Under the pieces are notes generated by a model. It ran no database searches. It was not told where the DNA came from and saw only the letters and a program-made list of their open reading frames with translations. 64,000 nucleotides of DNA, from sequence record PZ296772.1, one strand, 5' to 3'. The translations under genes were made by a program, and so were the position numbers. This DNA is from a phage. Numbering within the stretch: position 1 is the first letter of the stretch; each line of letters begins with the position of its first letter. Shown here one piece after another: positions 9,390-53,839 of this stretch.

Positions 9390-9391
9390 TT

Positions 9392-9998: not shown

Positions 9999-10022
9999 CC
10001 AGGTGCCGCCTGGTCTTCTTTA
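9998..10022 (+). terminator. rho-independent terminator
   Basis: accagg-tgccg-cctggt hairpin then tcttcttt. Confidence 0.55.
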
Positions 10023-10164
10023 TCCTATTTCTAATATAATCCATTGGAATCTTCACTTCACTATCTCCTTGTGCCCCTCTCAAATCAAAAATATTTTTCA
10101 TAAAACAGTTTACATCCTCGATAGATGTGTTAAGATTAAACCAACTGCTATAGAGGAAAACAAA

Positions 10165-10347
10165 ATGACAATTGAAGATAAAGAAATTAAGGTTGACCAG
10201 TACTATTCTGTCAACGGTAACGCAGTACAGATAACCGGAGTTTCAAGCCTGGATGTTTGGTACCGTTCAATCAAATATCCAGAAATTGGTGAAATGCTTT
10301 GTGACCGTAGTATCTTCTGTTCAATTGCGAAGGAAATTAAGCCATGA
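10165..10347 (+). CDS. hypothetical protein
   Basis: 60 aa; RBS agagga before ATG 10165. Confidence 0.45.
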   Translation: MTIEDKEIKVDQYYSVNGNAVQITGVSSLDVWYRSIKYPEIGEMLCDRSIFCSIAKEIKP

Positions 10348-10592
10348 TTAGTTTAGATTCAAAGAAGGTTGTTCTAACCCTTAAAGTTAATGACGAGCAT
10401 CCGGTATTCATTACCATTTCCGATTTGCATGTTGAAATTGCTAATGGCGTTCGTACTTATCAAGCAAATAAAACTCATTGGGACTATATCCCAATGTTGA
10501 CGCTTACTCAGCGTTTAGAATCAATCGGTCTTAAAGACCTTTCAGTAAGTGAAGTGAATTTTATCAAACGCATTGTATCAATCAACCTCTGA
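10344..10592 (+). CDS. hypothetical protein
   Basis: 82-aa ORF coupled to upstream gene. Confidence 0.5.
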   Translation: MISLDSKKVVLTLKVNDEHPVFITISDLHVEIANGVRTYQANKTHWDYIPMLTLTQRLESIGLKDLSVSEVNFIKRIVSINL

Positions 10593-10599
10593 GGTACTT

Positions 10600-10893
10600 A
10601 TGGGTAAAACATATCGTCGTAAAGATTTGAAAGTTCGCGATTACGACTATTTTGGTAAGCGTAAAGCTCCTGACGGTGTTAGCCACAAAGACATGGTTGA
10701 AAACATCTTCCGCTCAGATAAATGGAAACGTATGAAAGGTGTTGATTCTGAAGTCAAGAACGAAATGAATCGACAACTCCGCAAAGAAGTTCGTAAGTTG
10801 AAAAAAGATGTTTACAGTAAAGAAGATTATGATTATAATACTTCTCATACTGAAGCCAAACGTAAAGCTAACGAATGTTATCGTTACAGTTGA
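10600..10893 (+). CDS. hypothetical basic protein
   Basis: 97 aa, Lys/Arg rich; gagg RBS. Confidence 0.5.
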   Translation: MGKTYRRKDLKVRDYDYFGKRKAPDGVSHKDMVENIFRSDKWKRMKGVDSEVKNEMNRQLRKEVRKLKKDVYSKEDYDYNTSHTEAKRKANECYRYS

Positions 10894-10900
10894 GGAAATT

Positions 10901-11032
10901 ATGAATATCAAACGCTGGCTTTTTAAGCAAGGGTTCTACACTTTAAATTCTGCTCCAAAAGGCGATACAACTAAGTGGTCAGTAAATGACTGGATTAAAT
11001 TTATTGATGAAAACGGTAACTGGAAAATTTAA
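10901..11032 (+). CDS. hypothetical small protein
   Basis: 43 aa; gaggaaatt RBS. Confidence 0.4.
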   Translation: MNIKRWLFKQGFYTLNSAPKGDTTKWSVNDWIKFIDENGNWKI

Positions 11033-11233
11033 ATGAATCCTGAAAATATTGTGTCATGGCAACTTCGTGAAGAACGTGCAGAATTCTTTGCCAATATGAA
11101 ACTCAACGGCGTTGAGGATGAAGACTTCTTACGTTGGTTCTGGATTTACAAATACAAAGAATGCCAGCACGCTGTACTACTGACTTGTGCAGTTATGTAC
11201 GAAGGCTGGAAAGGCGCTAAAAAGTTCGGTTAA
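11033..11233 (+). CDS. hypothetical protein
   Basis: 66-aa ORF. Confidence 0.45.
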   Translation: MNPENIVSWQLREERAEFFANMKLNGVEDEDFLRWFWIYKYKECQHAVLLTCAVMYEGWKGAKKFG

Positions 11234-11235
11234 TA

Positions 11236-11274
11236 ATGTACAACGATAGGAAGACATGTTATTATCTTCCTATC
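11236..11274 (+). promoter_or_regulatory. early promoter with flanking stem-loop (PeSL-like cassette)
   Basis: tgtaca -35, tattat -10, bracketed by 10-bp inverted repeat gataggaaga / tcttcctatc. Confidence 0.6.
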
Positions 11275-11296
11275 GTCTTAAAATGAGGAAAATATC

Positions 11297-11536
11297 ATGG
11301 CCCAAGAATTAGATTTTATCAAATTCAAAAAACACCTCGACGTTAAAATTGGGGATTCAATTGTTAGGATTGAGTATGACATTTTAACAGATGCTATTAC
11401 TGTTAGTTGTGATGGAAATAGTTTCAGCTTCGATACAACCGAAAACAAATACCCAATCTATAAAGGCATCTTTGATATGGGTGTTGATATCACTCCACGT
11501 GATACAAATTACTTACTTTTCATGCTTAAAAAATAA
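11297..11536 (+). CDS. hypothetical protein
   Basis: 79 aa; gaggaaaat RBS. Confidence 0.5.
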   Translation: MAQELDFIKFKKHLDVKIGDSIVRIEYDILTDAITVSCDGNSFSFDTTENKYPIYKGIFDMGVDITPRDTNYLLFMLKK

Positions 11537-11601
11537 TATACAACTCTTGAGAGATGAGTATAATTCTCTAGTTGGATAATAAAATAACCGAGGAAAATAA
11601 T

Positions 11602-11934
11602 ATGTCTACTAAAATCAAAAACGTAGTTAATTCTTTCGCTTTCGATAAAGTTGTTGCTCTTCTGGAATCCGGCAATATTGTTACTCCTCAAGTTCTTGAC
11701 GCGTGGGAATTCCGTCTTTATGAAATCATGCAAAAACATGGCCAGAAAATTGGACGTAATTCTATTCGCGAAATTCTAGTACAATATATTCTTTCTGAAT
11801 TTGACGTTGCTGCATTTGGTGTTGAATCTAAAGCTTATCAGAAACATGAAATCTCTGAAAAGACTATCCGTCGTATGAAAAATCAACGTAAGAAAAAATT
11901 CGTTGACCTGAAAATTGTTAAGGCGGTAAAATGA
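11602..11934 (+). CDS. hypothetical protein
   Basis: 110 aa; gaggaaaat RBS; basic C-terminus. Confidence 0.5.
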   Translation: MSTKIKNVVNSFAFDKVVALLESGNIVTPQVLDAWEFRLYEIMQKHGQKIGRNSIREILVQYILSEFDVAAFGVESKAYQKHEISEKTIRRMKNQRKKKFVDLKIVKAVK

Positions 11935-12158
11935 GCGTATTAACAGAAACTTTGATTAATGACCTGCGTCTAGCTGGTTACGAAGTTGGTACAAATAGCC
12001 TAGGTCTTCCTCAGATTGAAGGTCCTGGATTTATTCTAGAATATGAATTCAAACAATGGTGGTTATATGCTACGGTTGACGATGCGTTGAATATTGATTT
12101 CGTTGACCAATTTGATTCGCTGGATGCTGCTCTTGAAGCAGCAAAGGAACTAGAATGA
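11931..12158 (+). CDS. hypothetical protein
   Basis: 75-aa acidic ORF, coupled. Confidence 0.5.
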   Translation: MSVLTETLINDLRLAGYEVGTNSLGLPQIEGPGFILEYEFKQWWLYATVDDALNIDFVDQFDSLDAALEAAKELE

Positions 12159-12424
12159 AATTAACTCGAATCAGTATAACTGAAGAAAAGCTTGGCGAAT
12201 TTTATGTTGACGAATACATGAAAGTCACGTATTTTCCATTCGTTAAAGGTGTTGGTTTTTGGGAAACTCATGTATCTCAATTAAACGAAGGCGACTATAA
12301 CGAAACACATGAGAACTTTTTAGATTTTCTTTATAATGCCGGTCTTACTGAGCTTTATATCGATATCCATGAGTTCAAACGTTTAATGGAAAAAGTGTTT
12401 CAGGCTTATTGTTTGCTCCGATAG
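12155..12424 (+). CDS. hypothetical protein
   Basis: 89-aa ORF, coupled. Confidence 0.5.
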   Translation: MKLTRISITEEKLGEFYVDEYMKVTYFPFVKGVGFWETHVSQLNEGDYNETHENFLDFLYNAGLTELYIDIHEFKRLMEKVFQAYCLLR

Positions 12425-12431
12425 TATCTCG

Positions 12432-12475
12432 TGCTTTAAGATAGGTCTCTAAATATTATGATATAATAGACCTAT
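12432..12475 (+). promoter_or_regulatory. promoter region upstream of gene 55: MotA-box-like tgcttta plus -10 flanked by inverted repeat
   Basis: tgcttta at 12432-12438; tataat 12462-12467 bracketed by ataggtct / agacctat. Confidence 0.5.
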
Positions 12476-12496
12476 GAATTGAGCCAAGAGGTACTT

Positions 12497-13054
12497 ATGA
12501 CTGAACAAAAACCTAAAAATAACTATGTGAATAATAAAGAGCTTCTCGCCGCTATAATCGAGTGGAAAAAGGAGCTCTTAAATAATAAAGACCCAAACAA
12601 AATTATTCGTCAGAATGATACCATCGGTTTAGCAATTATGCTTATCGCCGAAGGCCTGTCCAAACGTTTCAACTTTTCAGGATATACCCAGTCTTGGAAG
12701 CAGGAGATGATTGCAGATGGGATTGAAGCCTCTATTAAGGGACTTCATAATTTCGACGAAACTAAGTACAATAACCCACATGCATACATAACTCGAGCTT
12801 GTTTTAATGCTTTTGTCCAACGTATCAAAAAAGAACGTAAGGAAGTTGCAAAGAAATATAGTTACTTCGTTCATAATGTCTACGACAGTCATGACGATGA
12901 TATGGTAGCGTTGGTAGATGAAACGTTTATTCAAGACATCTACGATAAAATGACGCATTATGAAGAATCCGCTTATAAAGCTCCTGGGGCTGAAAAGAAG
13001 GAAGTTGTTAGCGATTCGCCTAGTTTGGATTTTTTATATGAGGATGACAATTGA
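12497..13054 (+). CDS. 55: late-transcription sigma factor gp55
   Basis: [13 protein letters not shown]...[39 protein letters not shown] matches T4 gp55 from memory; aagagg RBS before ATG 12497. Confidence 0.9.
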
Positions 13055-13253
13055 CATCTCTAACTACTTAGAAGAACCTTTTGACGAAGCAATCCCTTAT
13101 TTGGTAAAACTGTTGGGTCGTGAATTTAAAATTAATTTTGACATCGACCCTTTGAACCCACATGACGTGTCATTTTCGATAAATGGGACTCCGGTTGAGT
13201 ATGAGTTCTGTATTGAAGAGGATGGACGTTTTTATTTTAATTTAATGAGATAA
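13038..13253 (+). CDS. hypothetical protein
   Basis: about 70-aa ORF overlapping end of gene 55. Confidence 0.4.
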
Positions 13254-13254
13254 T

Positions 13255-13578
13255 ATGACTACCGAGATTATTGAAAATAAAGAAGCAGAAGATGCAGTAG
13301 CTAAAATGCTACAAGAAATCCAAAAGAAAAATGAAGCTGAAGCACGTAAAAAATCCGAAAAGATTCTTAAAAAGAATCGTTTTGAACTAAACCGTCTTTA
13401 TGCTCATGCTCAAGAAGCAGCAATTCAAAACAACTTCGAAGCTTACGAATATGCTATTAAGAAATCTCGGGATATTCTACGACAACCATATAATGACAAG
13501 TTAATTAAAATCCAGTGGGTTACTACTCGTCAGGCTATTGAGGACATCATTAATGGCGCTAGTTCAAACAAAGTTTAA
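13255..13578 (+). CDS. hypothetical coiled-coil protein
   Basis: 107 aa, Lys/Glu-rich helical. Confidence 0.5.
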   Translation: MTTEIIENKEAEDAVAKMLQEIQKKNEAEARKKSEKILKKNRFELNRLYAHAQEAAIQNNFEAYEYAIKKSRDILRQPYNDKLIKIQWVTTRQAIEDIINGASSNKV

Positions 13579-23434: not shown

Positions 23435-24070
23435 ATGAAAACTACTCCTATTACTATCGCTATTGACGCAATCATAAAACAAGCTTCTTCTTTGGCCGCT
23501 ATGGCCAAAGTAATTAGTCAAAACCCTGCTCGTTATAATGCTATTCTAGAAACTCTTCGACGCCCGGGACTTAGTAATTATGAAAGCCGAGTAATTATTA
23601 CAGGTGTTGGTAAGAATGCTAATATTGCAACTAAAGCTTCTGAGACATTTGCTTCACTCGGTATCCCGAGTATGTACTTGAACACCGGGCACTATTCTCA
23701 CGGTGATGCAGGATTTATTGCGCCTAATGATGTATTAGTTCACATCAGTCGTTCTGGTAAGACTGAAGAAATGATAGGTGTTGCTAAACATCTTCGTATG
23801 ATTCGTCCTCAGGTTAAACAGATTCTGTTACATTGTAACCCTGACATTCCACAAGAATACGAAGCTCTTTTTGATTATACGTTCTGTACCGGTATCGCGG
23901 TAGAAGTTGACGAGAACTCTTTAGCTCCGACAATGTCAACCACATTGTTGTTAGCGCTTATCGATACGTTCGCTATCAACCTTTCGTCTGAGCGTGGATT
24001 TACCTCTAATGACTTCCTTAAGTTCCACCCTGGTGGTGCACTAGGTGCCATGTTACGAGGCGAACAATGA
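23435..24070 (+). CDS. SIS-domain sugar-phosphate isomerase, KdsD/GutQ-type arabinose-5-phosphate isomerase-like
   Basis: 211 aa; GVGKNANIA phosphosugar-binding loop, HGDAGFI, LAPTMSTT signature, HPGGALG. Confidence 0.75.
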   Translation: MKTTPITIAIDAIIKQASSLAAMAKVISQNPARYNAILETLRRPGLSNYESRVIITGVGKNANIATKASETFASLGIPSMYLNTGHYSHGDAGFIAPNDVLVHISRSGKTEEMIGVAKHLRMIRPQVKQILLHCNPDIPQEYEALFDYTFCTGIAVEVDENSLAPTMSTTLLLALIDTFAINLSSERGFTSNDFLKFHPGGALGAMLRGEQ

Positions 24071-24210
24071 AAGCAATAACAATAGGACTTTTACTATTGA
24101 TGCTTGTCATGACTATCTACTGGAGCTTAACGGCTCCAGTAATGATTCCAACACTTGTAATTGGATGGATTATGATTGGTCTACAGGCAAAGTATGAATG
24201 CTTTAACTAG
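24067..24210 (+). CDS. small hydrophobic membrane peptide (below ORF-track cutoff)
   Basis: 47 aa MKAITIGLLLLMLVMTIYWSL...; ATGA overlap with upstream stop. Confidence 0.35.
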   Translation: MKAITIGLLLLMLVMTIYWSLTAPVMIPTLVIGWIMIGLQAKYECFN

Positions 24211-24251
24211 AATAGTGTACAATACATCTACTTACCAATGAGGACCACAAC

Positions 24252-25937
24252 ATGAAAAAAGCTGTTATTCTTGGTGCTGGACTGGCAACTCGTTTGTATC
24301 CAATAACGCATCATATTCCAAAAGTTCTTGTGAACTATAAACAAGACACTATTCTGAGCAATTTGTATACAATTTATTCTGACCTTGGCGCAGATGAAAT
24401 TATTGTAGTAGTTCATTCAAAATTTGCTGAAACTGTTCGAGCTTATTGTGAGCAAGAAGGGTTCAATGTGACTATTCGTACAGTTGATGAAGCGTATGGT
24501 TCTGCTTATGCTCTTGCTAAATTACACAAAGATTTAGACGGCCATAATGTAATTGTTAACTGGTGTGATATTATTCCTGATTTTGGTTCATGGTCTTGGA
24601 ATGTTAACGCAATCTATGTTAAGGGTGACGAATGTCGGTATAATTTCGACGGTGAAAATATCACTAACGTAGGTTCAACAGGTGGTAATGTTGTAGGAAT
24701 TTATCAGTTCAAAGACTGGGAATTCTATATGGGTTCTACTGATGAGGAAATTCATGAATACTGCAAAGGACGCGATTTCGTAGAATTCCTTTACAGCGGC
24801 GCATTCAATAAATCAGAGCTTATGAATCTAATTGATTTAGGTGATATGCCTAAACTTGAAAAAGCTCATGAAGTTCGTGAACTTAATCGTAGTTTTAATG
24901 CAGTTGAAATTGGTGAAGAAACTGTAACTAAATTCGCATTAACCGAACAGGGTCGAGCTCTTCAGAAAGATGAGATTTCATGGTATCTTAAAGTGAAATC
25001 AGATTCAGTTCCTCAGTTAGTTTCTGTAAATGAAAATAACTTTGAAATGGAACGTATTAAAGGTAAGCCGGCATTTGAATATATTAAATCCAAATCAAGT
25101 CTTGCTCGTCCACAAATTGTTGATGCAATTTTAGATGCACTAAAATTCAGCACAGACACGTATTTTGTAAGTCCTGAAACTGTTCGTCGTGATTTCACTA
25201 AAGAATTCTATACGAAAGTTATTGATCGTTGTGAAAGCATTCAGCCATTGATTGATTCATTTGGTAAAATCACACACGTGAACTACACTAAGATTGGACG
25301 TCTGAAGCCAATGCTGAAACAAGCTTTAGAACACCTTATTCGTTATCATAACCGTTCTCAGGGACAGTACTCTGTTATTCATGGTGACCCGAACTTCAGT
25401 AATACTATGATTACTGATAACGGCGAAGTCAAGTTTATCGACCCTCGTGGATATTTTGGCGAAACCAAGATTTACGGGCCAAAATTGTATGATGAAGCTA
25501 AAGTGCTTTATGCTGTTTCAGGTTATGATGAATTCAATGCTAATCCGACCTGGGGACAGTTTACTATTGATGAAACAACTTGTAATGTGACTATTAACAT
25601 CAATCCATTAATTTACAAATATGGAAAGATGAGTTCGTTTAACGAGTATCATCATTTGGCTGTAGCAATTATCTGGATTGCATTAGGTGGTTATTTCAAG
25701 AATAATCCACTTAAAGCGGTAGCCGCATATTATAAAGGTATGGAACTTCTGACTAAGCAATTACGTAACATGGGCCGTGTACTTCAAGATGGCTCTATTA
25801 GTTATGACGTAGCAGAACCTGTAACGGCTACTCTGATTACAAAAAATCCTGGTAAATGGGTACTAACTGATAAAGAAACTGGTGTTTCCTATCGTCCAAT
25901 CGGTGGCGATATCACTCATCAATGGGAACGAATCTAA
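24252..25937 (+). CDS. bifunctional sugar-1-phosphate nucleotidyltransferase / sugar kinase
   Basis: N-terminal LGAGLATRLYPIT resembles RmlA/GlmU GxGTRL pyrophosphorylase loop; C-terminal HGDPNFSNTMI...IDPRG resembles APH/choline-kinase-type catalytic loop. Confidence 0.7.
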   Translation: MKKAVILGAGLATRLYPITHHIPKVLVNYKQDTILSNLYTIYSDLGADEIIVVVHSKFAETVRAYCEQEGFNVTIRTVDEAYGSAYALAKLHKDLDGHNVIVNWCDIIPDFGSWSWNVNAIYVKGDECRYNFDGENITNVGSTGGNVVGIYQFKDWEFYMGSTDEEIHEYCKGRDFVEFLYSGAFNKSELMNLIDLGDMPKLEKAHEVRELNRSFNAVEIGEETVTKFALTEQGRALQKDEISWYLKVKSDSVPQLVSVNENNFEMERIKGKPAFEYIKSKSSLARPQIVDAILDALKFSTDTYFVSPETVRRDFTKEFYTKVIDRCESIQPLIDSFGKITHVNYTKIGRLKPMLKQALEHLIRYHNRSQGQYSVIHGDPNFSNTMITDNGEVKFIDPRGYFGETKIYGPKLYDEAKVLYAVSGYDEFNANPTWGQFTIDETTCNVTININPLIYKYGKMSSFNEYHHLAVAIIWIALGGYFKNNPLKAVAAYYKGMELLTKQLRNMGRVLQDGSISYDVAEPVTATLITKNPGKWVLTDKETGVSYRPIGGDITHQWERI

Positions 25938-26323
25938 TGCATCGTGTAGAAAACATGCTTAATCTTTGTTTTGATGTCGACGATTGTATAACAGAGTGGA
26001 ATAACAATCGTGATTACGTGAACTTCAAGCCAGACGTCGAAATGGTGACTGCCATTAATGCCCTGTATGATGCAGGGCATACCATAACGCTTTACACTGC
26101 TCGTGGTATGAAGTCAGTAGGTCCTGGACGTATAGCAATTGACATTCTACCGAGTCTGATTCAGAACTTGGAAAACATTGGTTTGAAGTACCATAATTTG
26201 CTAACACATAAACCAGTATATGATTGGATTATCGACGACAAAGCTATGCGTCCTGACGAATTCAAAGCTCTTATGAATAAAGGCGAATTCGAAACATTTA
26301 AATCATATAAACCGAACCTATAA
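25937..26323 (+). CDS. HAD-superfamily phosphatase (KdsC-like size)
   Basis: FDVDDCIT motif I, TLYTARG motif II, IIDDKA motif IV; about 128 aa. Confidence 0.65.
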   Translation: MHRVENMLNLCFDVDDCITEWNNNRDYVNFKPDVEMVTAINALYDAGHTITLYTARGMKSVGPGRIAIDILPSLIQNLENIGLKYHNLLTHKPVYDWIIDDKAMRPDEFKALMNKGEFETFKSYKPNL

Positions 26324-26371
26324 TAATTTAAGTAAGACCTGCAAAAAAACCATCGCATCAATTAACGTGAG

Positions 26372-27541
26372 ATGCAAAAAATGAATACTTTTAAAATCGG
26401 AACGAATTTTGATTTAGCTCTTCTTGATAAAATCGTAGAGCTCAATAAAACTTATCCTAATAGCTTGATAAACGAAGTGTACGGCTCTACAAGAGAAATG
26501 GCTTTTGTAGCAGCCAGACCTGATTTTAGGCTTCCTGACGTTGACAAAAAGATGTTAGAAGATTACGTTAAACGTTGTAACGAATTAGGTATTTGCTTTA
26601 ACTATACACTCAACACGATAAATCCTGGTTCAAAAAGAGAACTAGTTGAGTGGAAGAAGAAAGCTATTCAGGATTATGTTCAGTATCTTTGGTCAATAGG
26701 CGTATGGCGTATTACTATCGCTAACCCTGTTGTTATGGAAATTGTTCGTGAAGTAAATAAAGACATTGAGATTGAAGTTTCAACAATTCTACATGTTGAT
26801 GCTGTAACTCAAATCAAATACTTGCATGACCAATATAATATCAAAAAGGTCTGCTGTGGAATTCATAAGAACCGTTCAGTTTCTTTCCTGAAGCGTGCAG
26901 CAGAGTTTTGCAATAAGAACAATATAATATTTGAAGTTCTTGTAAATGAGTTCTGTTCTAATGCTGGTAAAGGGTATACAACACATTGTAGCTATCGTGA
27001 CTCTTGCTATATTTTCCATAGTACTGATGTTACAGCTGATGATGCTAAATCCTTAAATGGATATCCAATGCAGCACTGTATTAAAGCTCGTGATACAGAC
27101 CCATTTAACTGGTTGAGAACTCGTTTTGTTCGTCCTCAAGATTTGAAACTTTATAATGATATTGGTATCACTCAATTCAAAGTTTCAGGACGTACAGGTA
27201 GCACAGACTACATTTTGAAAGTTCTTGAAGCATACGCTTCTGAAAAGTTTGAAGGTAATTTGTTAGAACTGTGGAAGCCTTTAGAGACTATTTTCACTCT
27301 TGAAAACGAAACCGAGTTTTCACATACAGTAAATATTGAAACCTCTTTGTTAGATGGCTTTTTAGAAAAAAGGTGGTTCAGACATCCAGATTTCGATTGT
27401 GCTAATGAAATCTGTGGGACGACGTGTACATATTGTGAAAGATATTATAAACGTCAGTTATCTAAAAACGGGTTAGCAGAAAACTCTATATCTATTATTG
27501 ATATAACTAACTCTGATGACGCTTTGAGGTACCCGGAATGA
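26372..27541 (+). CDS. Cys-rich protein of unknown function in the modification island
   Basis: 389 aa; cysteine-dense segment NEFCSNAGKGYTTHCSYRDSCYIF loosely reminiscent of peptidase U32-type cysteine motifs; terminal C-x-C-x5-C-T-Y-C. Confidence 0.5.
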   Translation: MQKMNTFKIGTNFDLALLDKIVELNKTYPNSLINEVYGSTREMAFVAARPDFRLPDVDKKMLEDYVKRCNELGICFNYTLNTINPGSKRELVEWKKKAIQDYVQYLWSIGVWRITIANPVVMEIVREVNKDIEIEVSTILHVDAVTQIKYLHDQYNIKKVCCGIHKNRSVSFLKRAAEFCNKNNIIFEVLVNEFCSNAGKGYTTHCSYRDSCYIFHSTDVTADDAKSLNGYPMQHCIKARDTDPFNWLRTRFVRPQDLKLYNDIGITQFKVSGRTGSTDYILKVLEAYASEKFEGNLLELWKPLETIFTLENETEFSHTVNIETSLLDGFLEKRWFRHPDFDCANEICGTTCTYCERYYKRQLSKNGLAENSISIIDITNSDDALRYPE

Positions 27542-27777
27542 TTTCTAGAAAAACTTTTAATCACCAACTTAATGAAGAGATTTTGACTACGAAACTGAAC
27601 ACTAACGAACAAATTCTTAAAAAGGCCCTTATGGGCCTGTTTGAAACCAAAGCGGCTAAAGTGATTAAAGAACCTGTTCAATTGGAATACTACGCTGATG
27701 CATTTCTTCACAGTGTTCTTGGAAGTATCGATGCTGAAGCTTTACGGTATACCAACATTGCCAAGAAATTCAAATAA
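27538..27777 (+). CDS. hypothetical protein
   Basis: 79-aa ORF coupled to upstream gene. Confidence 0.45.
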   Translation: MISRKTFNHQLNEEILTTKLNTNEQILKKALMGLFETKAAKVIKEPVQLEYYADAFLHSVLGSIDAEALRYTNIAKKFK

Positions 27778-27819
27778 GCTTTACGAATCGAGTATATAAT
27801 AAATTGTATTGAGGTAAAC

Positions 27820-28536
27820 ATGGGAAAACATAACACAATGAAATATATCAAAGCCGCAGATTTTCAAGCCGCATTTAAAGCAGTCAATCGTGAAATTTTA
27901 GAAAACCCAGAATTCGTAACTGATTCTCGTATTGGACGTTGTAATGAAATTGGGTCTATGACAGTAGTTGTTGACACTCCATCATCATTCAAAATGACCG
28001 ACCCACGTATTAACCGCATCTCTTATGAATATGCTGAAGACTTCTGGAAGTTTATGATTTCTGGTGGTACTGACGCAGAAGAAGCGTTTAAGGCATACCC
28101 TAATGTCGCTAAATTTATTTCTAAACCCAAATCAGACGCTTTGCCGGCGAACTTCAACACTTTCTATGGTCCTCGCATTGCGGCCCAATTACCAGCTCTT
28201 CTAAAAGAACTTAAAGAGAAGCCTAACTCTCGAAGAGTTGTGTTCCAAATTCTAGAAAGTTCTGATCAGGCTTTGCTTGATTCGGACGAAACGCTTGAAT
28301 ATCCATGTACTGACTCAGTGACTTATTATATTCGTGATGGTAAGCTTTATACCCACTGTCATATGCGTTCTCAGAACTGTGCTGTTGTTATGCAGTTGGA
28401 TTTTTATCTCCAAGGAAAATTACTTCATTATATCGCTAACGAATGCGGTGTAGAAGTAGGTGATTATACTCATACCATGGTAAGTGCCCATGTGTTTGAA
28501 CGTGATTTTGATTATGTTAAAGGATTCCTTGACTAA
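27820..28536 (+). CDS. 42: thymidylate-synthase-fold dCMP hydroxymethylase homologue (diverged gp42)
   Basis: 238 aa; PNSRRVV...YPCTDSVTYYIRDGKLYTHCHMRSQ aligns by eye with T4 gp42 PDSRR...MCTNTVQYLIRDKK...NMRSND. Confidence 0.65.
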   Translation: MGKHNTMKYIKAADFQAAFKAVNREILENPEFVTDSRIGRCNEIGSMTVVVDTPSSFKMTDPRINRISYEYAEDFWKFMISGGTDAEEAFKAYPNVAKFISKPKSDALPANFNTFYGPRIAAQLPALLKELKEKPNSRRVVFQILESSDQALLDSDETLEYPCTDSVTYYIRDGKLYTHCHMRSQNCAVVMQLDFYLQGKLLHYIANECGVEVGDYTHTMVSAHVFERDFDYVKGFLD

Positions 28537-29435
28537 TGGCTATTTTCCGCGTACCTATCTTGAGTATGCGGTCTTATGAAACTGGACAGTATGCTATCCT
28601 TAAGGATGGCAACTTCCAACTTCATTTGCACCGTGCTAATCCAGGTGATGTGATTACATATCCACGTAATGCATCTGATATTAAAGAATGTGAACGTCTT
28701 TTCCCGGAATTTAAGTTTGTTCCATTATGGTATAAAGATAACGCGTATAACACTCGTAAATATTTCTGGTCTGAAAATGAATTTGTGGTTGATTCATTAA
28801 TTGCTTATTATGATTGTGATTTTCTAATCACAGATATCACTGGATATGATGGCGCTTTTGACGTAGAATTCAATTTCAATATCACTGCAGACCCTAATAA
28901 ACCACGTTTTTATATTGATGAATTCTTAAAAACCGACATGTTGTCTGTTAATCGTTCAATCCAAACAACTGTGTTGAATAAACGTCAAAAGGAAGTGCTG
29001 GTTAACGCTGGTGCCGATGGTAATAAGATTATCGTAACGCAGAAAGTTATACGTCCTTCCGTCATGCAGCGTCTTGTAGGTGATTTGGCTCCTATTCATC
29101 TAGATGGTATTTTTCATCCATTTCGAATTAGTGACCCATGCTATCGTTTTGAACAAGTTGTTGAATGCGCAATTCAATTAGGTCAACCGCTTTATATAAC
29201 TGATCCAAATAATAGTTTCGACAGAAATAAGTATCCTGAAGAAGCGCTGATTCGAATTTTTAATCCAACTAAAACTGAGTACTATCAAATTCTTAAAGGA
29301 CGTCCGAAGATTCAATATTTCGAAAATCCTGAAGAAGTATTCCATCCAGGTCTTGGTGAGTTCATCTACTTTAATGCTTTAATTTCTTCACCGTATAATA
29401 TACCTAAATACGAAGATGTCGTAATCGAGGAATAA
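28536..29435 (+). CDS. hypothetical protein occupying the T4 beta-glucosyltransferase position
   Basis: 299-aa ORF coupled to the gp42 homologue; no motif recognised. Confidence 0.5.
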   Translation: MAIFRVPILSMRSYETGQYAILKDGNFQLHLHRANPGDVITYPRNASDIKECERLFPEFKFVPLWYKDNAYNTRKYFWSENEFVVDSLIAYYDCDFLITDITGYDGAFDVEFNFNITADPNKPRFYIDEFLKTDMLSVNRSIQTTVLNKRQKEVLVNAGADGNKIIVTQKVIRPSVMQRLVGDLAPIHLDGIFHPFRISDPCYRFEQVVECAIQLGQPLYITDPNNSFDRNKYPEEALIRIFNPTKTEYYQILKGRPKIQYFENPEEVFHPGLGEFIYFNALISSPYNIPKYEDVVIEE

Positions 29436-29436
29436 A

Positions 29437-29985
29437 ATGGCTAAAATTATTTTAGTAGATGGCCCGGATAATGCCGGTAAAACAACTTTCATTAATGACG
29501 TAATGGAAATTAGTGAAAGATATGTAAAGATTGATTTCCCTAAACGAACAATTGATGGACGTTTCGATGTTAAGTCTCGAAATGAAGTTGGCTGTTTCGA
29601 AACGATGTTGAATTATTTAGACCCTACTAAGATTTATCTGTTAGACCGTGGATATATTAGTAACTGGGTTTATGGACGTATTCGACAAGATGCGGACTCA
29701 GTTCTTGACGTTTATGAACAGGATTATGTTCGTCTTTGCCAAAACCATGATGTGTTCACAATTATTTTAACACGTAACGAAATGACTGAAAGTTTTGAAG
29801 ACGACCTTATTACTTTGTCTTCATTAGGTTTTAATACAGTCATTTCATATTTTGAAGAGTTTGCAATTCATAACAAAATCCAAACGTATCAATTACTTAA
29901 TCATGATGGTGCTAACAAAGTTATAGGATTTAATGCAAGCGAACGTAATAATTTGATTACAGAAATCATCAAATGGGCTCGTTAA
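29437..29985 (+). CDS. P-loop nucleotide kinase-like protein
   Basis: Walker A VDGPDNAGKTT and LLDRGY (DRY-type) motif as in dNMP/thymidylate kinases. Confidence 0.6.
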   Translation: MAKIILVDGPDNAGKTTFINDVMEISERYVKIDFPKRTIDGRFDVKSRNEVGCFETMLNYLDPTKIYLLDRGYISNWVYGRIRQDADSVLDVYEQDYVRLCQNHDVFTIILTRNEMTESFEDDLITLSSLGFNTVISYFEEFAIHNKIQTYQLLNHDGANKVIGFNASERNNLITEIIKWAR

Positions 29986-38060: not shown

Positions 38061-38582
38061 ATGGCACACTTTAACGAATGTTCACAACTTATTTCTGGTG
38101 TTGATAAAGCAGAAGAAGCTTATTTTAATGCTCTGATTCACGAAGATAAAGACCCACTGCAGGTAATGCTTGATATGCAGAAATCTTTACAGGTTCGTTT
38201 GGCAAATGATAAGCCTGAACATAACAAACATCCTGATGAATTGGCTACTGCCGGTGATGTTGTTGATTGGCTGCGTAATCAGAAAGATTATATTGATGAT
38301 GAATTCCGTGAACTGCTGACTTCACTTGGCGGTATGAGCAATGGTGAAAAAGCCGCTAGCTCTGTATGGAAGCCGTGGAAAGCACAACATGCTGAATATC
38401 GTAATCGTCGTATCGATGAACTGTCTCCTGAAGACCAGCTTGAAATTAAATTCGAGATGATTGACATCCTCCACTTTGTTCTGAATATGTTCCAAGGTCT
38501 GGGTCTTTCTGCTGAAGAAATCTTTAAACTTTACTACTTGAAAAACCAACACAACTTTGAACGCCAGGATAACGGTTACTAA
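38061..38582 (+). CDS. 56: dCTPase-dUTPase gp56
   Basis: MAHFNEC...DPLQVMLDMQ...LTSLGGMSNGEKA matches T4 gp56 from memory. Confidence 0.9.
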   Translation: MAHFNECSQLISGVDKAEEAYFNALIHEDKDPLQVMLDMQKSLQVRLANDKPEHNKHPDELATAGDVVDWLRNQKDYIDDEFRELLTSLGGMSNGEKAASSVWKPWKAQHAEYRNRRIDELSPEDQLEIKFEMIDILHFVLNMFQGLGLSAEEIFKLYYLKNQHNFERQDNGY

Positions 38583-48359: not shown

Positions 48360-50177
48360 ATGATTAAAAATGAAATTAAGGTATTGTCAGATGTAGAACA
48401 TATTAAGAAACGTAGTGGTATGTATATTGGTTCTTCGGCCAAAGAAGCACATGAGCGTTTTTTGTTTGGTAAATATCAACAAGTTGAATATGTTCCTGGT
48501 CTGGTTAAATTAATCGATGAGATTATTGACAACTCGGTCGATGAAGCTATTCGTACATCATTTAAGTTTGCAAATAAAATTGATGTGCAAATTAAAAATA
48601 ATCAAGTTTCGGTGGAAGATAACGGACGTGGTATTCCTCAAGGTTTAGTTACAGACCAAACAGGTGAACAAATTCCTGGGCCTGTAGCAGCCTGGACTAT
48701 TCCAAAGGCCGGTGGTAACTTTGGTGATGACTCTGAACGCAAGACTGGTGGTATGAACGGTGTCGGGAGTAGTTTAACTAATATCTTCTCTACGTTGTTT
48801 ACAGGCATTACGTCAGATGGCGAAAATGAAATCACTGTTAACTGTTCAAACGGAATGGAAAACAAATCATGGTCTTCTAAGAAATCTAAAGGTAAAGGCA
48901 CTAAAGTAATCTTCACTCCTGATTTCTCTTCATTTGAAGAGCATAATTTATCTCAAATTTATTTAGATATTACTTTAGACCGACTTCAAACATTAGCAGT
49001 CGTTTATCCTGATATCAAGTTCACATTTAATGGTAAAAAGGTTGATGGTAATTTTAAACGATTTGCTAAACAATTTGGTGAAGATAACATCATTCAAGAA
49101 AATGATAAAGTCTCTATAGCATTCACAACATCACCAGATGGCTTCCGTCATTTAACTTATGTGAATAACATCCATACTAAAAATGGCGGACATCATGTTG
49201 AATGTGTAATGGATGATATCTGCGAACATCTTTTGCCGGGTATTAAAAAGAAATATAAAGGTATTGAAGTCACTAAAGCTCGTGTTAAAGAATGCCTCAC
49301 AATGTTGATGTTTATTAGAGACATGAGCAACGTGCGTTTTGATTCTCAGACTAAAGAACGTTTAACGTCGACGTATGGTGATATTCGTAATCATATCCAA
49401 TTAGATGCTAAGAAAATTGCTCAGGCACTTCTTAAAAACGAAGCCTTGATTATGCCTATTGTTGAAGCAGCATTAGCTCGTAAATTGGCGGCAGAAAAGG
49501 CTGCAGAAACTAAAGCAGCTAAAAAGGCAACTAAAGCTAAAGTTCATAAGCATATTAAAGCTAACCAATGTGGTAAAGATGCAGATACGACATTGTTCTT
49601 AACAGAAGGTGATTCGGCAATTGGTTATCTCATTGATGTTCGTGACCGTGAACTACACGGTGGATTCCCATTACGTGGTAAGGTGATGAATAGCTGGGGT
49701 ATGTCATATGCTGATATGATGAAGAACAAAGAGCTCTTTGATATCTGTGCTATCACAGGTCTTATTCTTGGTGAAAAGGCAGAGAATACGAACTATCGTA
49801 ATATTGCAATTATGACTGATGCCGATCATGACGGTCTTGGAAGTATTTATCCGGCTTTGCTTGCTTTCTTTAGTAATTGGCCTGAATTGTTTGAACAAGG
49901 ACGTATTCGCTTTGTTAAAACGCCTGTAATTATTGCACAAATTGGCAAAACTCAAAAATGGTTTTATACTGTAGCTGAGTATGAAGAAGTTAAAGATACA
50001 CTGCCTAAGCATAGTATTCGATACATCAAGGGATTAGGCTCCCTTGAAAAGTCAGAATATCGTGAAATGATTCAGAACCCAGTGTACGACGTAGTTAAAC
50101 TTCCTGAAAATTGGAAAGAACTATTTGAAATGCTCATGGGTGATGATTCAGAACTTCGTAAAGAATGGATGTCCTAA
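48360..50177 (+). CDS. 39: DNA topoisomerase II large subunit (gp39 fused with gp60-equivalent region)
   Basis: 605 aa continuous; GHKL ATPase motif EDNGRGIP and Toprim LTEGDSA. Confidence 0.9.
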   Translation: MIKNEIKVLSDVEHIKKRSGMYIGSSAKEAHERFLFGKYQQVEYVPGLVKLIDEIIDNSVDEAIRTSFKFANKIDVQIKNNQVSVEDNGRGIPQGLVTDQTGEQIPGPVAAWTIPKAGGNFGDDSERKTGGMNGVGSSLTNIFSTLFTGITSDGENEITVNCSNGMENKSWSSKKSKGKGTKVIFTPDFSSFEEHNLSQIYLDITLDRLQTLAVVYPDIKFTFNGKKVDGNFKRFAKQFGEDNIIQENDKVSIAFTTSPDGFRHLTYVNNIHTKNGGHHVECVMDDICEHLLPGIKKKYKGIEVTKARVKECLTMLMFIRDMSNVRFDSQTKERLTSTYGDIRNHIQLDAKKIAQALLKNEALIMPIVEAALARKLAAEKAAETKAAKKATKAKVHKHIKANQCGKDADTTLFLTEGDSAIGYLIDVRDRELHGGFPLRGKVMNSWGMSYADMMKNKELFDICAITGLILGEKAENTNYRNIAIMTDADHDGLGSIYPALLAFFSNWPELFEQGRIRFVKTPVIIAQIGKTQKWFYTVAEYEEVKDTLPKHSIRYIKGLGSLEKSEYREMIQNPVYDVVKLPENWKELFEMLMGDDSELRKEWMS

Positions 50178-50200
50178 GCTCCTTCGGGAGCTTCATTTTA
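50177..50200 (+). terminator. stem-loop / weak terminator
   Basis: agctcc-ttcg-ggagct hairpin then tcatttta. Confidence 0.5.
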
Positions 50201-50219
50201 ATTTTAATAAGGCTTAATT

Positions 50220-51320
50220 ATGAAAGTTATGTTTATCCCATCTCGTGCAGTCCCATTTAATCCTGACCGTGTACAAGGTGGACTTGAAGCAGTACATTTA
50301 AATGTGTTGAAATATCTTGTGTCCATCGGTGCTGATATTGATTATATCGGCTTTGATAATGACACGTTTGGTGACTGGAAAGTTACACACCATCCTGTTG
50401 GTCATCTGACTAAATTCAGTCTAGGTATGAGTTATACTATGGCTCGTAAGATTGTTGAACTAGCCGGCATCCATGAATACGATTTTGTTGTTACTATGGA
50501 ACCGACTAAACTAACCGTCCAAGCAATTAAAGACGCAGGTCTCTCTAAAGTTCATAAGAATTTTATGGCTACGCCATTTGAACCGGTGTCTCGTGGTATT
50601 GTTCAAATTTGGGATCAGACTATCCAGATTCACAAGAACGGTGGGAAGAGCTATGCTCCTACTAAAGCCTTCCGTGAATTTGAACGTAAATATTGTCATA
50701 TGACTTCAGCTCTTACTGACAAAATTGATTATGACTACTGGCGTGAAAATCCATTATTTGAACCTGATGACTACCCGGTTATTTGTTTGAATGAAAAACC
50801 TGAAGTTCTTCCGGCAACTGATTTGATTATTAGTGCTCAACGTTATGACACTAAGATGCGTCGCACTGATGTTGCTCTTGAAGCAATTAAAGCACTAGGC
50901 GAAAATGGTATTGGTTATTGTCCAAGCAAATGGGCACCACCAGCTAAATATCCTGTTATTATTGATGCTCCACACAGTGAAATCATGGAACGTCTTAAAA
51001 CAGCTAAAGCACTTATTAATACATGTCCTGACACAGGTACGGTAGAGAATAGTTCTATTGAAGCCATCTCTAAAGGTGTCCCTGTAATCCAGTTAGTTTT
51101 TAAGGATTATCCTCATGCGACATTCGAATACGACCCAGATACTGTGCGTGTAGAAATTGATTCCTCTACTCCTAAGAAAGAAGTAGTTGCGCTTTACACA
51201 AAAGCTGTATTAGAATTCACTGACACATACAAAGCTCGAGTTAAACGTGCTGAAGCAGTATGGAAGAAGTATAATCGAGATGCAGTTGTTGCGATGTGGG
51301 ATAAAATCTTCACAGCGTAA
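50220..51320 (+). CDS. GT-B fold glycosyltransferase (GT4-like), candidate DNA hydroxymethylcytosine pentosyltransferase
   Basis: 366 aa; N-terminal MKVMFIPSRAVPFNPDRVQGGLEAVHLNVLKYL and C-terminal GTVENSSIEAISKGVPVI resemble GT1/GT4 donor-binding motifs. Confidence 0.6.
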   Translation: MKVMFIPSRAVPFNPDRVQGGLEAVHLNVLKYLVSIGADIDYIGFDNDTFGDWKVTHHPVGHLTKFSLGMSYTMARKIVELAGIHEYDFVVTMEPTKLTVQAIKDAGLSKVHKNFMATPFEPVSRGIVQIWDQTIQIHKNGGKSYAPTKAFREFERKYCHMTSALTDKIDYDYWRENPLFEPDDYPVICLNEKPEVLPATDLIISAQRYDTKMRRTDVALEAIKALGENGIGYCPSKWAPPAKYPVIIDAPHSEIMERLKTAKALINTCPDTGTVENSSIEAISKGVPVIQLVFKDYPHATFEYDPDTVRVEIDSSTPKKEVVALYTKAVLEFTDTYKARVKRAEAVWKKYNRDAVVAMWDKIFTA

Positions 51321-51336
51321 ATCCTGAATAGCCTGA

Positions 51337-51386
51337 GGCACTATTACACATAAGATGATAAATTATATGGTCTTTAGTAATAGTGC
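51337..51386 (+). promoter_or_regulatory. long stem-loop between glycosyltransferase gene and rIIA-proximal ORF
   Basis: 11-bp perfect inverted repeat ggcactattac / gtaatagtgcc with 26-nt AT-rich loop. Confidence 0.5.
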
Positions 51387-51412
51387 CCTAGGAATCTACT
51401 GAAGAGAATATT

Positions 51413-51613
51413 ATGAGAACATATAACGTGGACTTGGAACTTTTTGATAAAGCGGTGCTCCGGGAATTCCGGCTTATCCAAAGATTTTTTGATATCGAGT
51501 CAGCAGAGTCATTTAAAGAACGCTTTAAAGAAATTCGATATAAAATACAAACCGATACAGCTACTAAAGAAGAACTTCTTGAAGTAGCAGAAATTTTTAA
51601 ACGTAACTTGTGA
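51413..51613 (+). CDS. hypothetical protein (rIIA.1 position)
   Basis: 66-aa ORF just upstream of rIIA. Confidence 0.5.
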   Translation: MRTYNVDLELFDKAVLREFRLIQRFFDIESAESFKERFKEIRYKIQTDTATKEELLEVAEIFKRNL

Positions 51614-51625: not shown

Positions 51626-53839
51626 ATGATTATTGAAACAGCTAAAGAAACGATTATTGGTTCAGGCGGTAAGAGCACAGCATTCACTATTCAAGGCAAT
51701 AGCAAAGTTTATAAGATTTTGTCTAATGACCTTTATACAAACAAAGAATTGGCTTGTGTACGTGAATTAATCACAAACTGTATCGATGGACAAATTCTTA
51801 ATGGTTGCACTGATAAGTTTATTGTTCAGGCTCCAGGTCGTTTAGACCCACGTTTTGTAGTTCGAGACTTTGGTCCTGGCATGAGCGATTTCACCATTAG
51901 AGGTAATGACGAAGAGCCAGGAATCTATAACTCATATTTTGCTTCAACTAAAACATCGAGTAACGATTTCATTGGCGGATTCGGACTCGGCTCTAAAGCT
52001 CCACTAGCATATACCGATACGTTTAACCTTACGTCTTATCACAACGGTGAAGTTCGTGGTTACGTAATCTACCAAGATGACAGTGGTCCACAGATTAAGC
52101 CGACCTTTGTAGATAAGATGGGCCCTGATGACCGTACGGGTGTAGAAGTAGTTGTGCCGGTTAACCCAGAAGATTTTGAAAAGTTCGCATCTGAAATTGC
52201 ATATGTTATGCGTCCTCTAGGTGATATTGCAGAAGTTCGCGGTGTTAAAGATATTAAATACTTTCCTGAATTTGACGATGTATATTTGGCTAAGGAAGCT
52301 CCATGGGGTGAACGTGGTAATATCATGGCTGTTTATGGTGGTATTGTATATCCAATCGGAAGTGTTATTAAAGAACAAACATGGATGATGACGCGATGCA
52401 CTACAGCTTATATTAAATTCCCTATGGGTGAACTAGATGTAGCCCCGTCTCGTGAAGCATTGTCATTTGATAAACGTACAGTAGCAAATATCCATAAACG
52501 CGTTGCAGAAATTGATGCAAAATTATTTGCTGAAGATTCTAAGAAATGGATTGATTGTGAATATCCACGTCATGTATTCCGTGAAATCGATTCTCTTGGT
52601 TACTCTGCTCGTAAATACATGGAAAAAGCTGGTTCTAATATTGAATCACTGAAATATTCTAAAGAACAGCTAACTTATTCTGAGTTGTACAAACGTTTTA
52701 AAATGGGACCCGAATGGTGCAACCTTGGTGTTGTATATGATATCGTTTCAGACCCACGACTTCGTCGTATTCGTGAAAGCGGAAGCTCGTCTGCAACTAT
52801 TTCAATTAATAGCCTGCTAGGTATTAGTCGTAAGCATATTGATATTGTTATTGACGATGTGAAAGGCCGCGTACCAATGATGCGTGCTCTGAACGATGCT
52901 TTGACTTCCACAGATGCATCAACACTCGTTGATAAGGTTCCTTCCGGATATGGTAGTAGCGTATTATTCATTAACCCGGAAGATGAAGTTGCAATGAAAC
53001 TTCTGGAACGATTAAAGGTTATTTTCGCTGGTGATAGCCTTAAATTTTATAAGACCTCTGAAATTCTTGCATTAGTTAAACCGTGGATTGAAGTTAAAGA
53101 ACGTTCATCGCAGCCTCGTCCTAAATCCCCAAGTGCTCATCGGTTCTTTAAGAACGAAAAAGATGTTTGGGTATCAGAAGACCTTTTTATTCCGGCCAGT
53201 AAAGCTGATGAGATTCAAGGTTATGTTGTAATTCGTAATCGTTCTAATGCTGAATGTCTTGATGCAGATAAAGGTTGGTTGAACTATGATTCAAATTTCT
53301 TGACCCGTATTGCTGATTTGTCAGGTATTAAAGAGTTCACTGTAGTTCGCCCACAGATTGCTAAGAAAGTTCGTAAACTTGGTGAAGTAGAATGTTTGTT
53401 CGAAAAATCAATTAATGACTATGTTATGCTAATTGATAAAGTGGATTATGATGAGTATGTATCACCAAGTCGTAGAGCACAGCCTTATTTGAATCATATT
53501 ACTCGTAATGAAGAGCTTAATTTCCTTAGTAAATATTTTAGCTCTAAGAACAAAGAAATCAGTAAAGACTTTGCAAAACTCTCAACAGTAAATAATCGCT
53601 GGGGATGGAATCGATTCGCAGGTGCTGATAACAAAGACCTGAACAGGAAGTTAGAATTGTGTGCTAAAATTTTCGATAAGCTTAAAGATAATGCTTACGA
53701 TAATGATGATAAAATGGTTATTGAATTCGAAACCAATTATCATATTGTGTCAGAATACATGGGACGACGTGGTACTCTTTCCAAAGAACAGGTCGCTCAA
53801 ATCGTTAAATTCATGAAGGCCGTGGAAGCGGCCAAATAA
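51626..53839 (+). CDS. rIIA: rIIA membrane-associated protein
   Basis: 737 aa; VRELITNCIDG...PGRLDPRFVVRDFGPGMSDF...GGFGLGSKA matches T4 rIIA from memory. Confidence 0.93.
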   Translation: MIIETAKETIIGSGGKSTAFTIQGNSKVYKILSNDLYTNKELACVRELITNCIDGQILNGCTDKFIVQAPGRLDPRFVVRDFGPGMSDFTIRGNDEEPGIYNSYFASTKTSSNDFIGGFGLGSKAPLAYTDTFNLTSYHNGEVRGYVIYQDDSGPQIKPTFVDKMGPDDRTGVEVVVPVNPEDFEKFASEIAYVMRPLGDIAEVRGVKDIKYFPEFDDVYLAKEAPWGERGNIMAVYGGIVYPIGSVIKEQTWMMTRCTTAYIKFPMGELDVAPSREALSFDKRTVANIHKRVAEIDAKLFAEDSKKWIDCEYPRHVFREIDSLGYSARKYMEKAGSNIESLKYSKEQLTYSELYKRFKMGPEWCNLGVVYDIVSDPRLRRIRESGSSSATISINSLLGISRKHIDIVIDDVKGRVPMMRALNDALTSTDASTLVDKVPSGYGSSVLFINPEDEVAMKLLERLKVIFAGDSLKFYKTSEILALVKPWIEVKERSSQPRPKSPSAHRFFKNEKDVWVSEDLFIPASKADEIQGYVVIRNRSNAECLDADKGWLNYDSNFLTRIADLSGIKEFTVVRPQIAKKVRKLGEVECLFEKSINDYVMLIDKVDYDEYVSPSRRAQPYLNHITRNEELNFLSKYFSSKNKEISKDFAKLSTVNNRWGWNRFAGADNKDLNRKLELCAKIFDKLKDNAYDNDDKMVIEFETNYHIVSEYMGRRGTLSKEQVAQIVKFMKAVEAAK

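Follow-up and report, generated by a model that had tools for sequence, protein, structure and literature searches.

A GT-B glycosyltransferase encoded between gene 39 and rIIA of a Mosigvirus-type phage, ortholog of RB69 gp3, is the probable second arabinosyltransferase of DNA hypermodification

Introduction

Arabinose was found in the DNA of phage RB69 by Thomas et al. (2018), whose candidate for the arabinosyltransferase was ORF003c: analysis with custom HMMs, HHpred and Phyre2 gave it a GT-B fold, with Gly20, Arg207 and Glu281 as the counterparts of the nucleotide-binding residues of the T4 alpha-glucosyltransferase, and the gene was linked to the module located between the DNA polymerase gene and uvsX (PMC6024577). 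ORF003c/gp3 also appears as a proposed DNA arabinosyltransferase in PMC13390438. The chemistry of the RB69 base was revised by Lee et al. (2026, NAR) to beta-D-Araf-(1-3)-alpha-D-Araf-5-hydroxy-2'-deoxycytidine (beta-D-Araf-(1-3)-alpha-D-Araf-O5-dC), the 5-hydroxycytosine being made by the flavin-containing ThyA homolog gp48, which has demonstrated 5-hydroxy-dCMP synthase activity (PMC13326640). The same authors listed RB69p003 as "beta-arabinosyltransferase 2", with gp46:47 as the proposed first transferase and gp3 as the second; the experimental part concerned only gp76 and gp77 of phage DLP3, which in combination use UDP-Araf to attach a third Araf to the already arabinosylated DNA of RB69 (PMC13326640). 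Transfer was observed neither with gp76 or gp77 singly nor with plain 5hoC DNA as substrate, so that UDP-Araf-dependent sugar-on-sugar transfer on DNA is established for these two proteins acting together (PMC13326640).

The number of sugars differs among the described phages: one pentose in the Shewanella phage Thanatos (PMC12838424), up to two arabinoses in RB69, NP, Bas46 and Bas47 (PMC13326640, PMC13390438, PMC12923530), and three in DLP3-type phages (PMC13326640). According to the citation in PMC13216743, an arabinosyltransferase named "Aat" was reportedly deleted in Bas46 by Mahler et al. (2025), and the HY126 pathway was characterised by He et al. (2026), as cited in PMC13326640. Here, we analyze the corresponding gene in a 64,000-nucleotide stretch of phage DNA (record PZ296772.1), referred to as the window.

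Results

The gene and its surroundings

Along its entire length, the segment of the window from 40 to 60 kb has 98.3% identity with Escherichia phage AlbertHofmann (Bas47) of the genus Mosigvirus. The ORF listing and the reading of the 64-kb sequence place a 366-residue ORF, running from ATG to TAA, between gene 39 and rIIA (Table 1); its product starts with MKVMFIPS...GGLEAVHLNVLKYL and carries the C-terminal string GTVENSSIEAISKGVPVI, exactly as in a previous sequence-only reading of this DNA. That reading had also placed the ORF in the slot of gene 60, mobA and rIIA.1, which is correct in part: gene 60 is fused into gene 39, but rIIA.1 is still present. The ORF differs by 1 nt from bas47_0105, labeled "putative hmC-arabinosyltransferase" in GenBank. 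The order rIIA – rIIA.1 – 366-residue gene – gene 39 is common to PhAPEC2, RB69, and HY126, which makes the ORF the ortholog of RB69 ORF003c (RB69p003, NP_861693). Comparison with the same three phages gives dN/dS values of 0.03-0.05, and this strong purifying selection speaks for a functional gene. A recent horizontal acquisition was rejected because the GC content of the ORF equals that of its flanks and its GC3 of 0.272 matches the 0.271 and 0.278 of the flanking genes.

Table 1 Features of the window discussed in the text
Feature	Coordinates	Strand	Basis or context
SIS-domain arabinose-5-phosphate isomerase, first step of UDP-Araf supply	23435..24070	+	Pfam SIS; annotations; PMC13326640
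561-aa bifunctional nucleotidyltransferase/kinase (AfhE-like; RB69 ORF53_52c), described as making UDP-Araf	24252..25937	+	Pfam NTP_transferase and weak kinase-family matches; PMC13326640, in its summary of He et al. 2026
133-aa HAD-like phosphatase (AfhF-like; RB69 gp51)	25922..26323	+	Position; "putative phosphatase" in Bas47, "HAD-like" in DLP1; no Pfam match; PMC13326640
389-aa Peptidase_U32-family protein (RB69 gp50)	26372..27541	+	Pfam Peptidase_U32; PMC13326640 Table 1
ThyA-like 5-hydroxy-dCMP synthase, makes the acceptor base	27820..28536	+	Pfam Thymidylat_synt; PDB 9IQC/9IR2/9IQU, E 4.5e-162
299-aa GT-B protein (RB69 gp46:47 position; DLP3 gp79, Thanatos TH1_063 family), proposed first (alpha) arabinosyltransferase and functional partner of the ORF	28536..29435	+	
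182-aa nucleotide (thymidylate-like) kinase (RB69 gp45)	29437..29985	+	Annotated in Bas47 and DLP1; no Pfam match; PMC13326640 Table 1
dCTPase (gene 56 homolog), depletes dCTP and supplies dCMP	38061..38582	+	Pfam dUTPase_2; Bas47 "dCTPase / dCDPase"
605-aa DNA topoisomerase II large subunit, fused gp39 and gp60	48360..50177		Upstream of the ORF
Terminator-like hairpin AAGCTCC-TTCG-GGAGCTT (7-bp stem, TTCG loop) with T-run	50176..50193, with T-run to 50203	+	
Shine-Dalgarno-like AAGGC	50209..50213	+	7 nt upstream of ATG; read from the sequence
366-aa GT-B glycosyltransferase, proposed second (beta) DNA arabinofuranosyltransferase	50220..51320	+	Ortholog of RB69 ORF003c/gp3, Bas47_0105, HY126 XAN60436.1
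Stem-loop, 61 nt, between the ORF and rIIA.1	about 51332..51392	+	11-bp perfect core stem, ~30-nt internal region
rIIA.1	51413..51613		Downstream of the ORF
rIIA	51626..53839		After rIIA.1; followed by rIIB

The two RNA elements described in the sequence-only reading, a terminator-like hairpin upstream and a long stem-loop downstream, were both found. The upstream hairpin overlaps the gene 39 stop codon and, with its T-run, leaves 17 nt to the ATG of the ORF. The PhAPEC2 annotation has a "putative terminator" in this position, and an intrinsic terminator or an RNA-stability element following gene 39 is plausible. As the gap between the hairpin itself and the ATG is only 26 nt and contains an AAGG Shine-Dalgarno motif, transcription reading through from gene 39 probably accounts for expression of the ORF. 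A promoter scan around the ORF returned sigma-70-like sites at a frequency not above that of shuffled sequence (5 vs 6.6 +/- 2.8). The downstream stem-loop has a dG of -27.7 kcal/mol with z = -4.36, none of 200 shuffles folding as well, and no T-run follows it. It is 99% conserved in five Mosigvirus genomes, where one change keeps a G-U pair and another breaks a pair; these five sequences, 99% identical to one another, show no informative covariation, and a search of Rfam matched no family.

Fold and nucleotide binding

The sequence search of the PDB gave one match of 369 residues, covering residues 1-366 of the ORF protein with E = 7e-250, in two entries released on 2025-07-16: 9IQZ, titled "phage HY126 glycosyltransferase", and 9IR0, "... 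with UDP". The ORF protein is 98% identical to this chain, with six substitutions including E176A, P181A/D182E, I230V, S315F, and K339E, none of which falls on an invariant position of the family. In the HY126 genome, the protein encoded at the syntenic position has all six diagnostic substitutions. Relatives are few: the homolog search by word index found five clusters among 5.8 billion proteins, and the exhaustive HMM search of 1.84 billion representatives found only 11 matching proteins. With so few relatives (5-11), no deep alignment was possible and the AF2 model of the protein is therefore poor (pLDDT 57), so that the evidence for the fold comes mainly from the PDB entries. These entries confirm a GT-B fold of GT4-like architecture, in which two Rossmann-like beta/alpha/beta domains flank a cleft that houses the active site, and uphold the sequence-only reading, which had named this fold and called for a structure comparison. 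Binding of UDP is established for the 98% identical ortholog in 9IR0; together with the invariant residues R208, R214, and E281, it points to binding of the nucleotide-sugar donor by the C-terminal domain of the ORF protein.

Residues G20, G142, R208, R214, N267, T268, T274, E281-A282, and G286-V-P-V289 are invariant in the family down to 20% identity. The GT4-like motifs previously noticed at both termini are real, but the canonical EX7E motif of GT4 enzymes is incomplete: E281 is invariant, position 273 is a glycine, and E276 creates an E-x4-E spacing. The Pfam scan of the ORF returned nothing even at E <= 10, Glycos_transf_1 and Glyco_trans_4 included, and the remote relatives gave only sub-threshold GT4-conflict or Glycos_transf_1 matches of 12-17 bits (cut-offs 26-27). 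Both by profile and by the EX7E motif, the protein falls outside CAZy GT4/Pfam Glycos_transf_1. In PHROGs, it belongs to PHROG 8302 (E 8e-221 over residues 1-366), a family labeled "unknown function".

The sugar-nucleotide island and its own glycosyltransferase

The window contains the 5hoC/UDP-Araf island at 23435..29985 (Table 1). Its ThyA-like enzyme and the characterised 5-hydroxy-dCMP synthase of PDB entry 9IQC are orthologs, and the three entries that the former matches, 9IQC/9IR2/9IQU, are from the same deposition series as 9IQZ/9IR0. The RB69 modification is located on O5-dC (PMC13326640), and the acceptor base is 5-hydroxycytosine, not the hmC that the sequence-only reading had named for a transfer assay. 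The same reading had regarded the 366-residue protein as the only recognisable glycosyltransferase of the window, which does not hold either, as the island encodes its own 299-residue GT-B protein. The latter has no match in a Pfam scan and is confidently assigned to the GT-B fold, with 6KIH, BshA, and PimA as structural neighbors. We rejected the idea that the two glycosyltransferases are diverged paralogs, since neither BLASTP nor hhalign detected any relationship between the 366- and the 299-residue families. Three ORFs of ~280-320 residues at the start of the window were considered as further glycosyltransferases and were rejected as well; they belong to DUF7235 or to no family.

Distribution, copy number, and relatives

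The 366-residue family occurs in 212 phage records, all of them Mosigvirus-type or Acinetobacter phages and all belonging to phage groups that carry the island glycosyltransferase. The 299-residue family is more widespread, with 349 records from Escherichia, Acinetobacter, Klebsiella, Serratia, Enterobacter, Proteus, Yersinia, Edwardsiella, Erwinia, Pectobacterium, Providencia, and Shewanella phages, including Thanatos. The 366-residue family is single-copy in Mosigvirus and found at two places per record in DLP-type Acinetobacter phages, and its copy number tracks the reported number of sugars: none in Thanatos, one in RB69, NP, Bas46, and Bas47, and two in DLP-type phages.

Homology to the founding members extends over the full length of the protein, with 98% identity to the RB69-group proteins and 42% and 40% to the Acinetobacter paralogs, which are 58% identical to each other. 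As the two paralogs lie at about the same distance from the window protein, the tandem duplication is specific to the Acinetobacter lineage, with the Mosigvirus protein as a co-ortholog of both gp76 and gp77 rather than of gp77 specifically. In DLP1, the two homologs stand in tandem directly after the genes for the isomerase, the pyrophosphorylase/kinase, the HAD protein, the ThyA-like protein, the 299-family glycosyltransferase, and the kinase. This adjacency is gene-neighborhood evidence for the link between ORF and island, which in Mosigvirus spans ~20 kb. Taken with the orthology to RB69 gp3, the UDP complex 9IR0, and the in vitro transfer by the DLP3 homologs, it upholds the core idea of the sequence-only reading, a DNA pentosyltransferase fed by the distant island.

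Among the more distant relatives, P0129 (39% identity) has phage structural genes as neighbors and no island within 10 kb, and the gene context of P0129 and P0130 is uninformative. The most remote relative sits in a thymidine-hypermodification cluster.

An enzyme that glycosylates something other than DNA, for instance a free nucleotide, a glycan of the host envelope, or a protein of the phage, and whose connection with DNA arabinosylation is indirect, would agree with the position of P0129 and with the substrates of the closest solved folds, PimA, BshA, WaaG, and tetrahydrobiopterin glucosyltransferase, which are lipids or small molecules. However, DNA is the in vitro substrate of the Acinetobacter co-orthologs (PMC13326640), the gene is found on the early strand in the early/DNA-metabolism region, the family is confined to phages having more than one arabinose on their DNA, and the most remote relative is also part of a DNA-hypermodification cluster; we therefore hold a non-DNA acceptor to be very improbable.

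Which sugar is transferred

Distribution, copy number, and the biochemistry of the homologs point to an enzyme that lengthens an existing sugar chain instead of joining a sugar to the base. We consider it probable that the ORF encodes a soluble GT-B glycosyltransferase of GT4-like architecture which, in the arabinosyl-5-hydroxycytosine hypermodification of Mosigvirus, adds the second arabinose onto the first.

The reverse assignment, in which the 366-residue enzyme is the primary transferase that sets the first arabinose on 5-hydroxycytosine in DNA and the 299-residue protein adds the second sugar or activates the sugar, is unlikely in our judgment. Thanatos and the Serratia, Klebsiella, Yersinia, and other island phages with pentosylated or arabinosylated cytosine do not have the 366-residue family, so another enzyme must perform the first step there; the 299-residue protein is a confident GT-B, the DLP3 co-orthologs need sugar-bearing DNA instead of bare 5hoC DNA (PMC13326640), and the copies of the 366-residue family follow the extra sugars. 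In favor of this assignment, ORF003c was the original candidate for arabinosylation, of hmC, in Thomas et al. (PMC6024577). The HY126 glycosyltransferase was crystallised with UDP, and the PDB holds no deposited structure of the 299-residue protein. The Thanatos homolog of the latter was reported to act in vitro as a UDP-xylose pyrophosphorylase that transferred nothing to plasmid DNA (PMC12838424), and DLP3 gp79 alone showed no activity on 5hoC DNA (PMC13326640).

The 366-residue enzyme could also be an obligate partner, in a heteromer with the 299-residue glycosyltransferase or as a homo-oligomer, and lack catalytic competence on its own. The requirement for both gp76 and gp77 in DLP3 (PMC13326640) and the two chains per PDB entry, of which the example chain is labeled H and hints at an oligomeric crystal content, would fit this arrangement, which nevertheless seems hardly likely to us given the single copy in Mosigvirus and the intact catalytic and nucleotide-binding residues; it would in any case refine the assignment to the second sugar more than replace it.

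Discussion

The gene, its proposed role, and a near-identical structure are already known from the literature proposal, the GenBank annotation, and the deposited crystal structure of the 98% identical ortholog. As the role has been proposed in print and the structure is in the PDB, the present finding adds no new biology; the ORF is likely the determinant of the second sugar.

We propose the following order of events, in which the assignment of the second step to this protein, its beta stereochemistry, and the roles of individual residues are inferred. The island at 23.4-30.0 kb would produce 5-hydroxy-dCMP, to be incorporated into DNA as 5hoC, and UDP-D-arabinofuranose. Most likely, the 299-residue GT-B protein would link the first arabinose to O5 of the base in alpha configuration. 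The 366-residue enzyme would bind UDP-Araf in the cleft between its Rossmann-like domains, where Gly20/Gly21, Arg208/Arg214, and Glu281 may contact the nucleotide, and would place a second Araf, in beta-(1-3) linkage, on the first sugar of the double-stranded phage DNA. [quoted passage not shown]

The presence of both an alpha and a beta linkage requires one retaining and one inverting glycosyltransferase, if both draw on the same UDP-Araf. Both glycosyltransferases of the window resemble retaining GT4-type folds, and inversion would be necessary to obtain a beta product from a UDP-alpha-D-Araf donor. Since the first Glu of EX7E is absent and no GT4 profile matches, the 366-residue enzyme might be a beta-(1-3)-D-arabinofuranosyltransferase that inverts although its scaffold is of the retaining GT4 type, with an acceptor sugar tethered to duplex DNA, and might found a new CAZy family; we put this forward only tentatively, as the less probable outcome. 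Were it correct, the new family would be one of unusual stereochemistry. In addition, the location of the most remote relative in a thymidine-hypermodification cluster hints that the clade could be a toolkit with which phages in general extend the decorations of their DNA bases.

Mosigvirus DNA is protected by its arabinosylated 5-hydroxycytosine against restriction enzymes and some CRISPR systems, and it depends on the number of sugars which defences of the host still recognise the DNA (PMC13326640; PMC13216743 and PMC12923530, in the passages where they cite Mahler et al. 2025). This is relevant to phage-therapy candidates and to the engineering and sequencing of these phages.

Comparison with known systems

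RB69 ORF003c/gp3 (NP_861693), Bas47_0105, and the HY126 glycosyltransferase (9IQZ, 9IR0) are the same gene, with a product of 366 residues, located between gene 39 and rIIA.1; the HY126 protein, at 98% amino acid identity, differs from the window protein by a handful of substitutions that spare the invariant positions. DLP3 gp76 and gp77 (ADLP1_074/075 in DLP1; DNA beta-arabinosyltransferases 2 and 3) are full-length homologs at 40-42% identity with the same invariant residues, which use UDP-Araf and act on arabinosylated 5hoC DNA (PMC13326640). They differ in forming a tandem pair inside the island and in being both needed for the third arabinose, whereas the Mosigvirus gene is a single copy ~20 kb away from the island in phages whose DNA stops at two arabinoses. 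The island 299-residue protein shares with the ORF protein the GT-B fold, with 6KIH, BshA, and PimA as structural neighbors, the pathway, and the window; it is unlike it in having no sequence or profile similarity, in its shorter length, in its far wider occurrence, and in the first, alpha-linked sugar proposed as its product.

The T4 alpha-glucosyltransferase (GT72) and beta-glucosyltransferase (GT63) are likewise early phage GT-B enzymes that transfer a sugar from a UDP-sugar onto modified cytosine in duplex DNA, with the same mode of action, but the ORF protein shows neither sequence nor close structural similarity to them. Its best non-phage structural matches are the bacterial retaining GT4 enzymes PimA (2GEJ), BshA (3MBO), WaaG, and PglA, with which it shares the N-terminal Gly-rich loop, the Arg/Lys pair, and the C-terminal Glu-Ala helix. 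The identity to these enzymes is 11-14%, and the ORF protein is set apart from them by Gly273 in place of the first Glu of EX7E, by its DNA-bound sugar acceptor, and by the proposed beta configuration of its product.

Remote relatives of the 366-aa glycosyltransferase

The most remote family member that we found, P0135, is encoded within a phage cluster for another kind of DNA hypermodification (L006, a Logan contig). Taken together, its neighbors, an amino-acid:DNA transferase, a 5-hmdU DNA kinase, two AdoMet_dc genes and a gene weakly resembling inositol-1-phosphate synthase, suggest thymidine hypermodification with glycosylation, a combination that may be hitherto undescribed. A closer relative, P0129, is surrounded by phage structural genes (T4 gp13-like, DUF4815 and terminase), with no sugar-nucleotide or ThyA-like gene within 10 kb on its contig (L007), and may represent a different use of the family.

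In the phage collection, tblastn matched the family in 157 non-Acinetobacter records, 156 of them at ≥95% identity, so that one non-Acinetobacter phage may hold a divergent copy (<60% identity). One record among the matches is named 'Tegunavirus'.

Coordinates of the features discussed in this part.
Feature	Sequence	Position	Strand	Details
P0129	L007 (Logan SRR34261890)	10001-11140		39% identity
P0135	L006 (Logan SRR24908209)	10001-11110		~20% identity
ADDT (amino-acid:DNA transferase)	L006	within 2307-13518		PF18724
HMUDK_hel (5-hmdU DNA kinase)	L006	within 2307-13518		PF18723
AdoMet_dc genes	L006	within 2307-13518		n = 2
Inositol-1-phosphate-synthase-like gene	L006	within 2307-13518		weak match
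HY126 glycosyltransferase	L005 (PP658200.1)	2247-3344	-	
Three tandem ORFs	window	3-2867	+	278-319 aa
Peptidase_U32-family protein (RB69 gp50)	window	26372-27541	+	mid-arabinosylation island
299-aa GT-B	window	28536-29435	+	arabinosylation island
Stem-loop, GT gene/rIIA.1 intergenic	window	51332-51392	+	dG -27.7 kcal/mol, z -4.4

The GenBank translation of the HY126 glycosyltransferase reads KGVLGIQ around residues 288-289, whereas KGVPVIQ is invariant in the PDB chain 9IQZ, the window protein and all other family members. The probable cause of this mismatch is faulty sequencing or assembly of the HY126 record, or else a differing expression construct.

Other features of the window

The stem-loop downstream of the glycosyltransferase gene has a perfect 11-bp core and is devoid of a T-run. 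No Rfam family was found for it, nor any informative covariation among five Mosigvirus genomes, in which it is 99% conserved. At the window start, one of the three tandem ORFs matches DUF7235 (E 1e-118) and the remaining two have no Pfam match; in Bas47 they are annotated as hypothetical.

Island genes in comparison with known systems

The C-terminal motif H270-P-G-L-x-E-F-I-Y-F is nearly invariant in the 299-aa GT-B of the island, the proposed first arabinosyltransferase. The activity reported for its Thanatos homolog, UDP-xylose pyrophosphorylase (PMC12838424), is unusual among proteins with a GT-B fold and at odds with this proposed role. In T4, the slot of the 299-aa GT-B is occupied by beta-gt. 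Unlike the window island, the equivalent cluster of Acinetobacter phage DLP1 lacks the Peptidase_U32-family protein.
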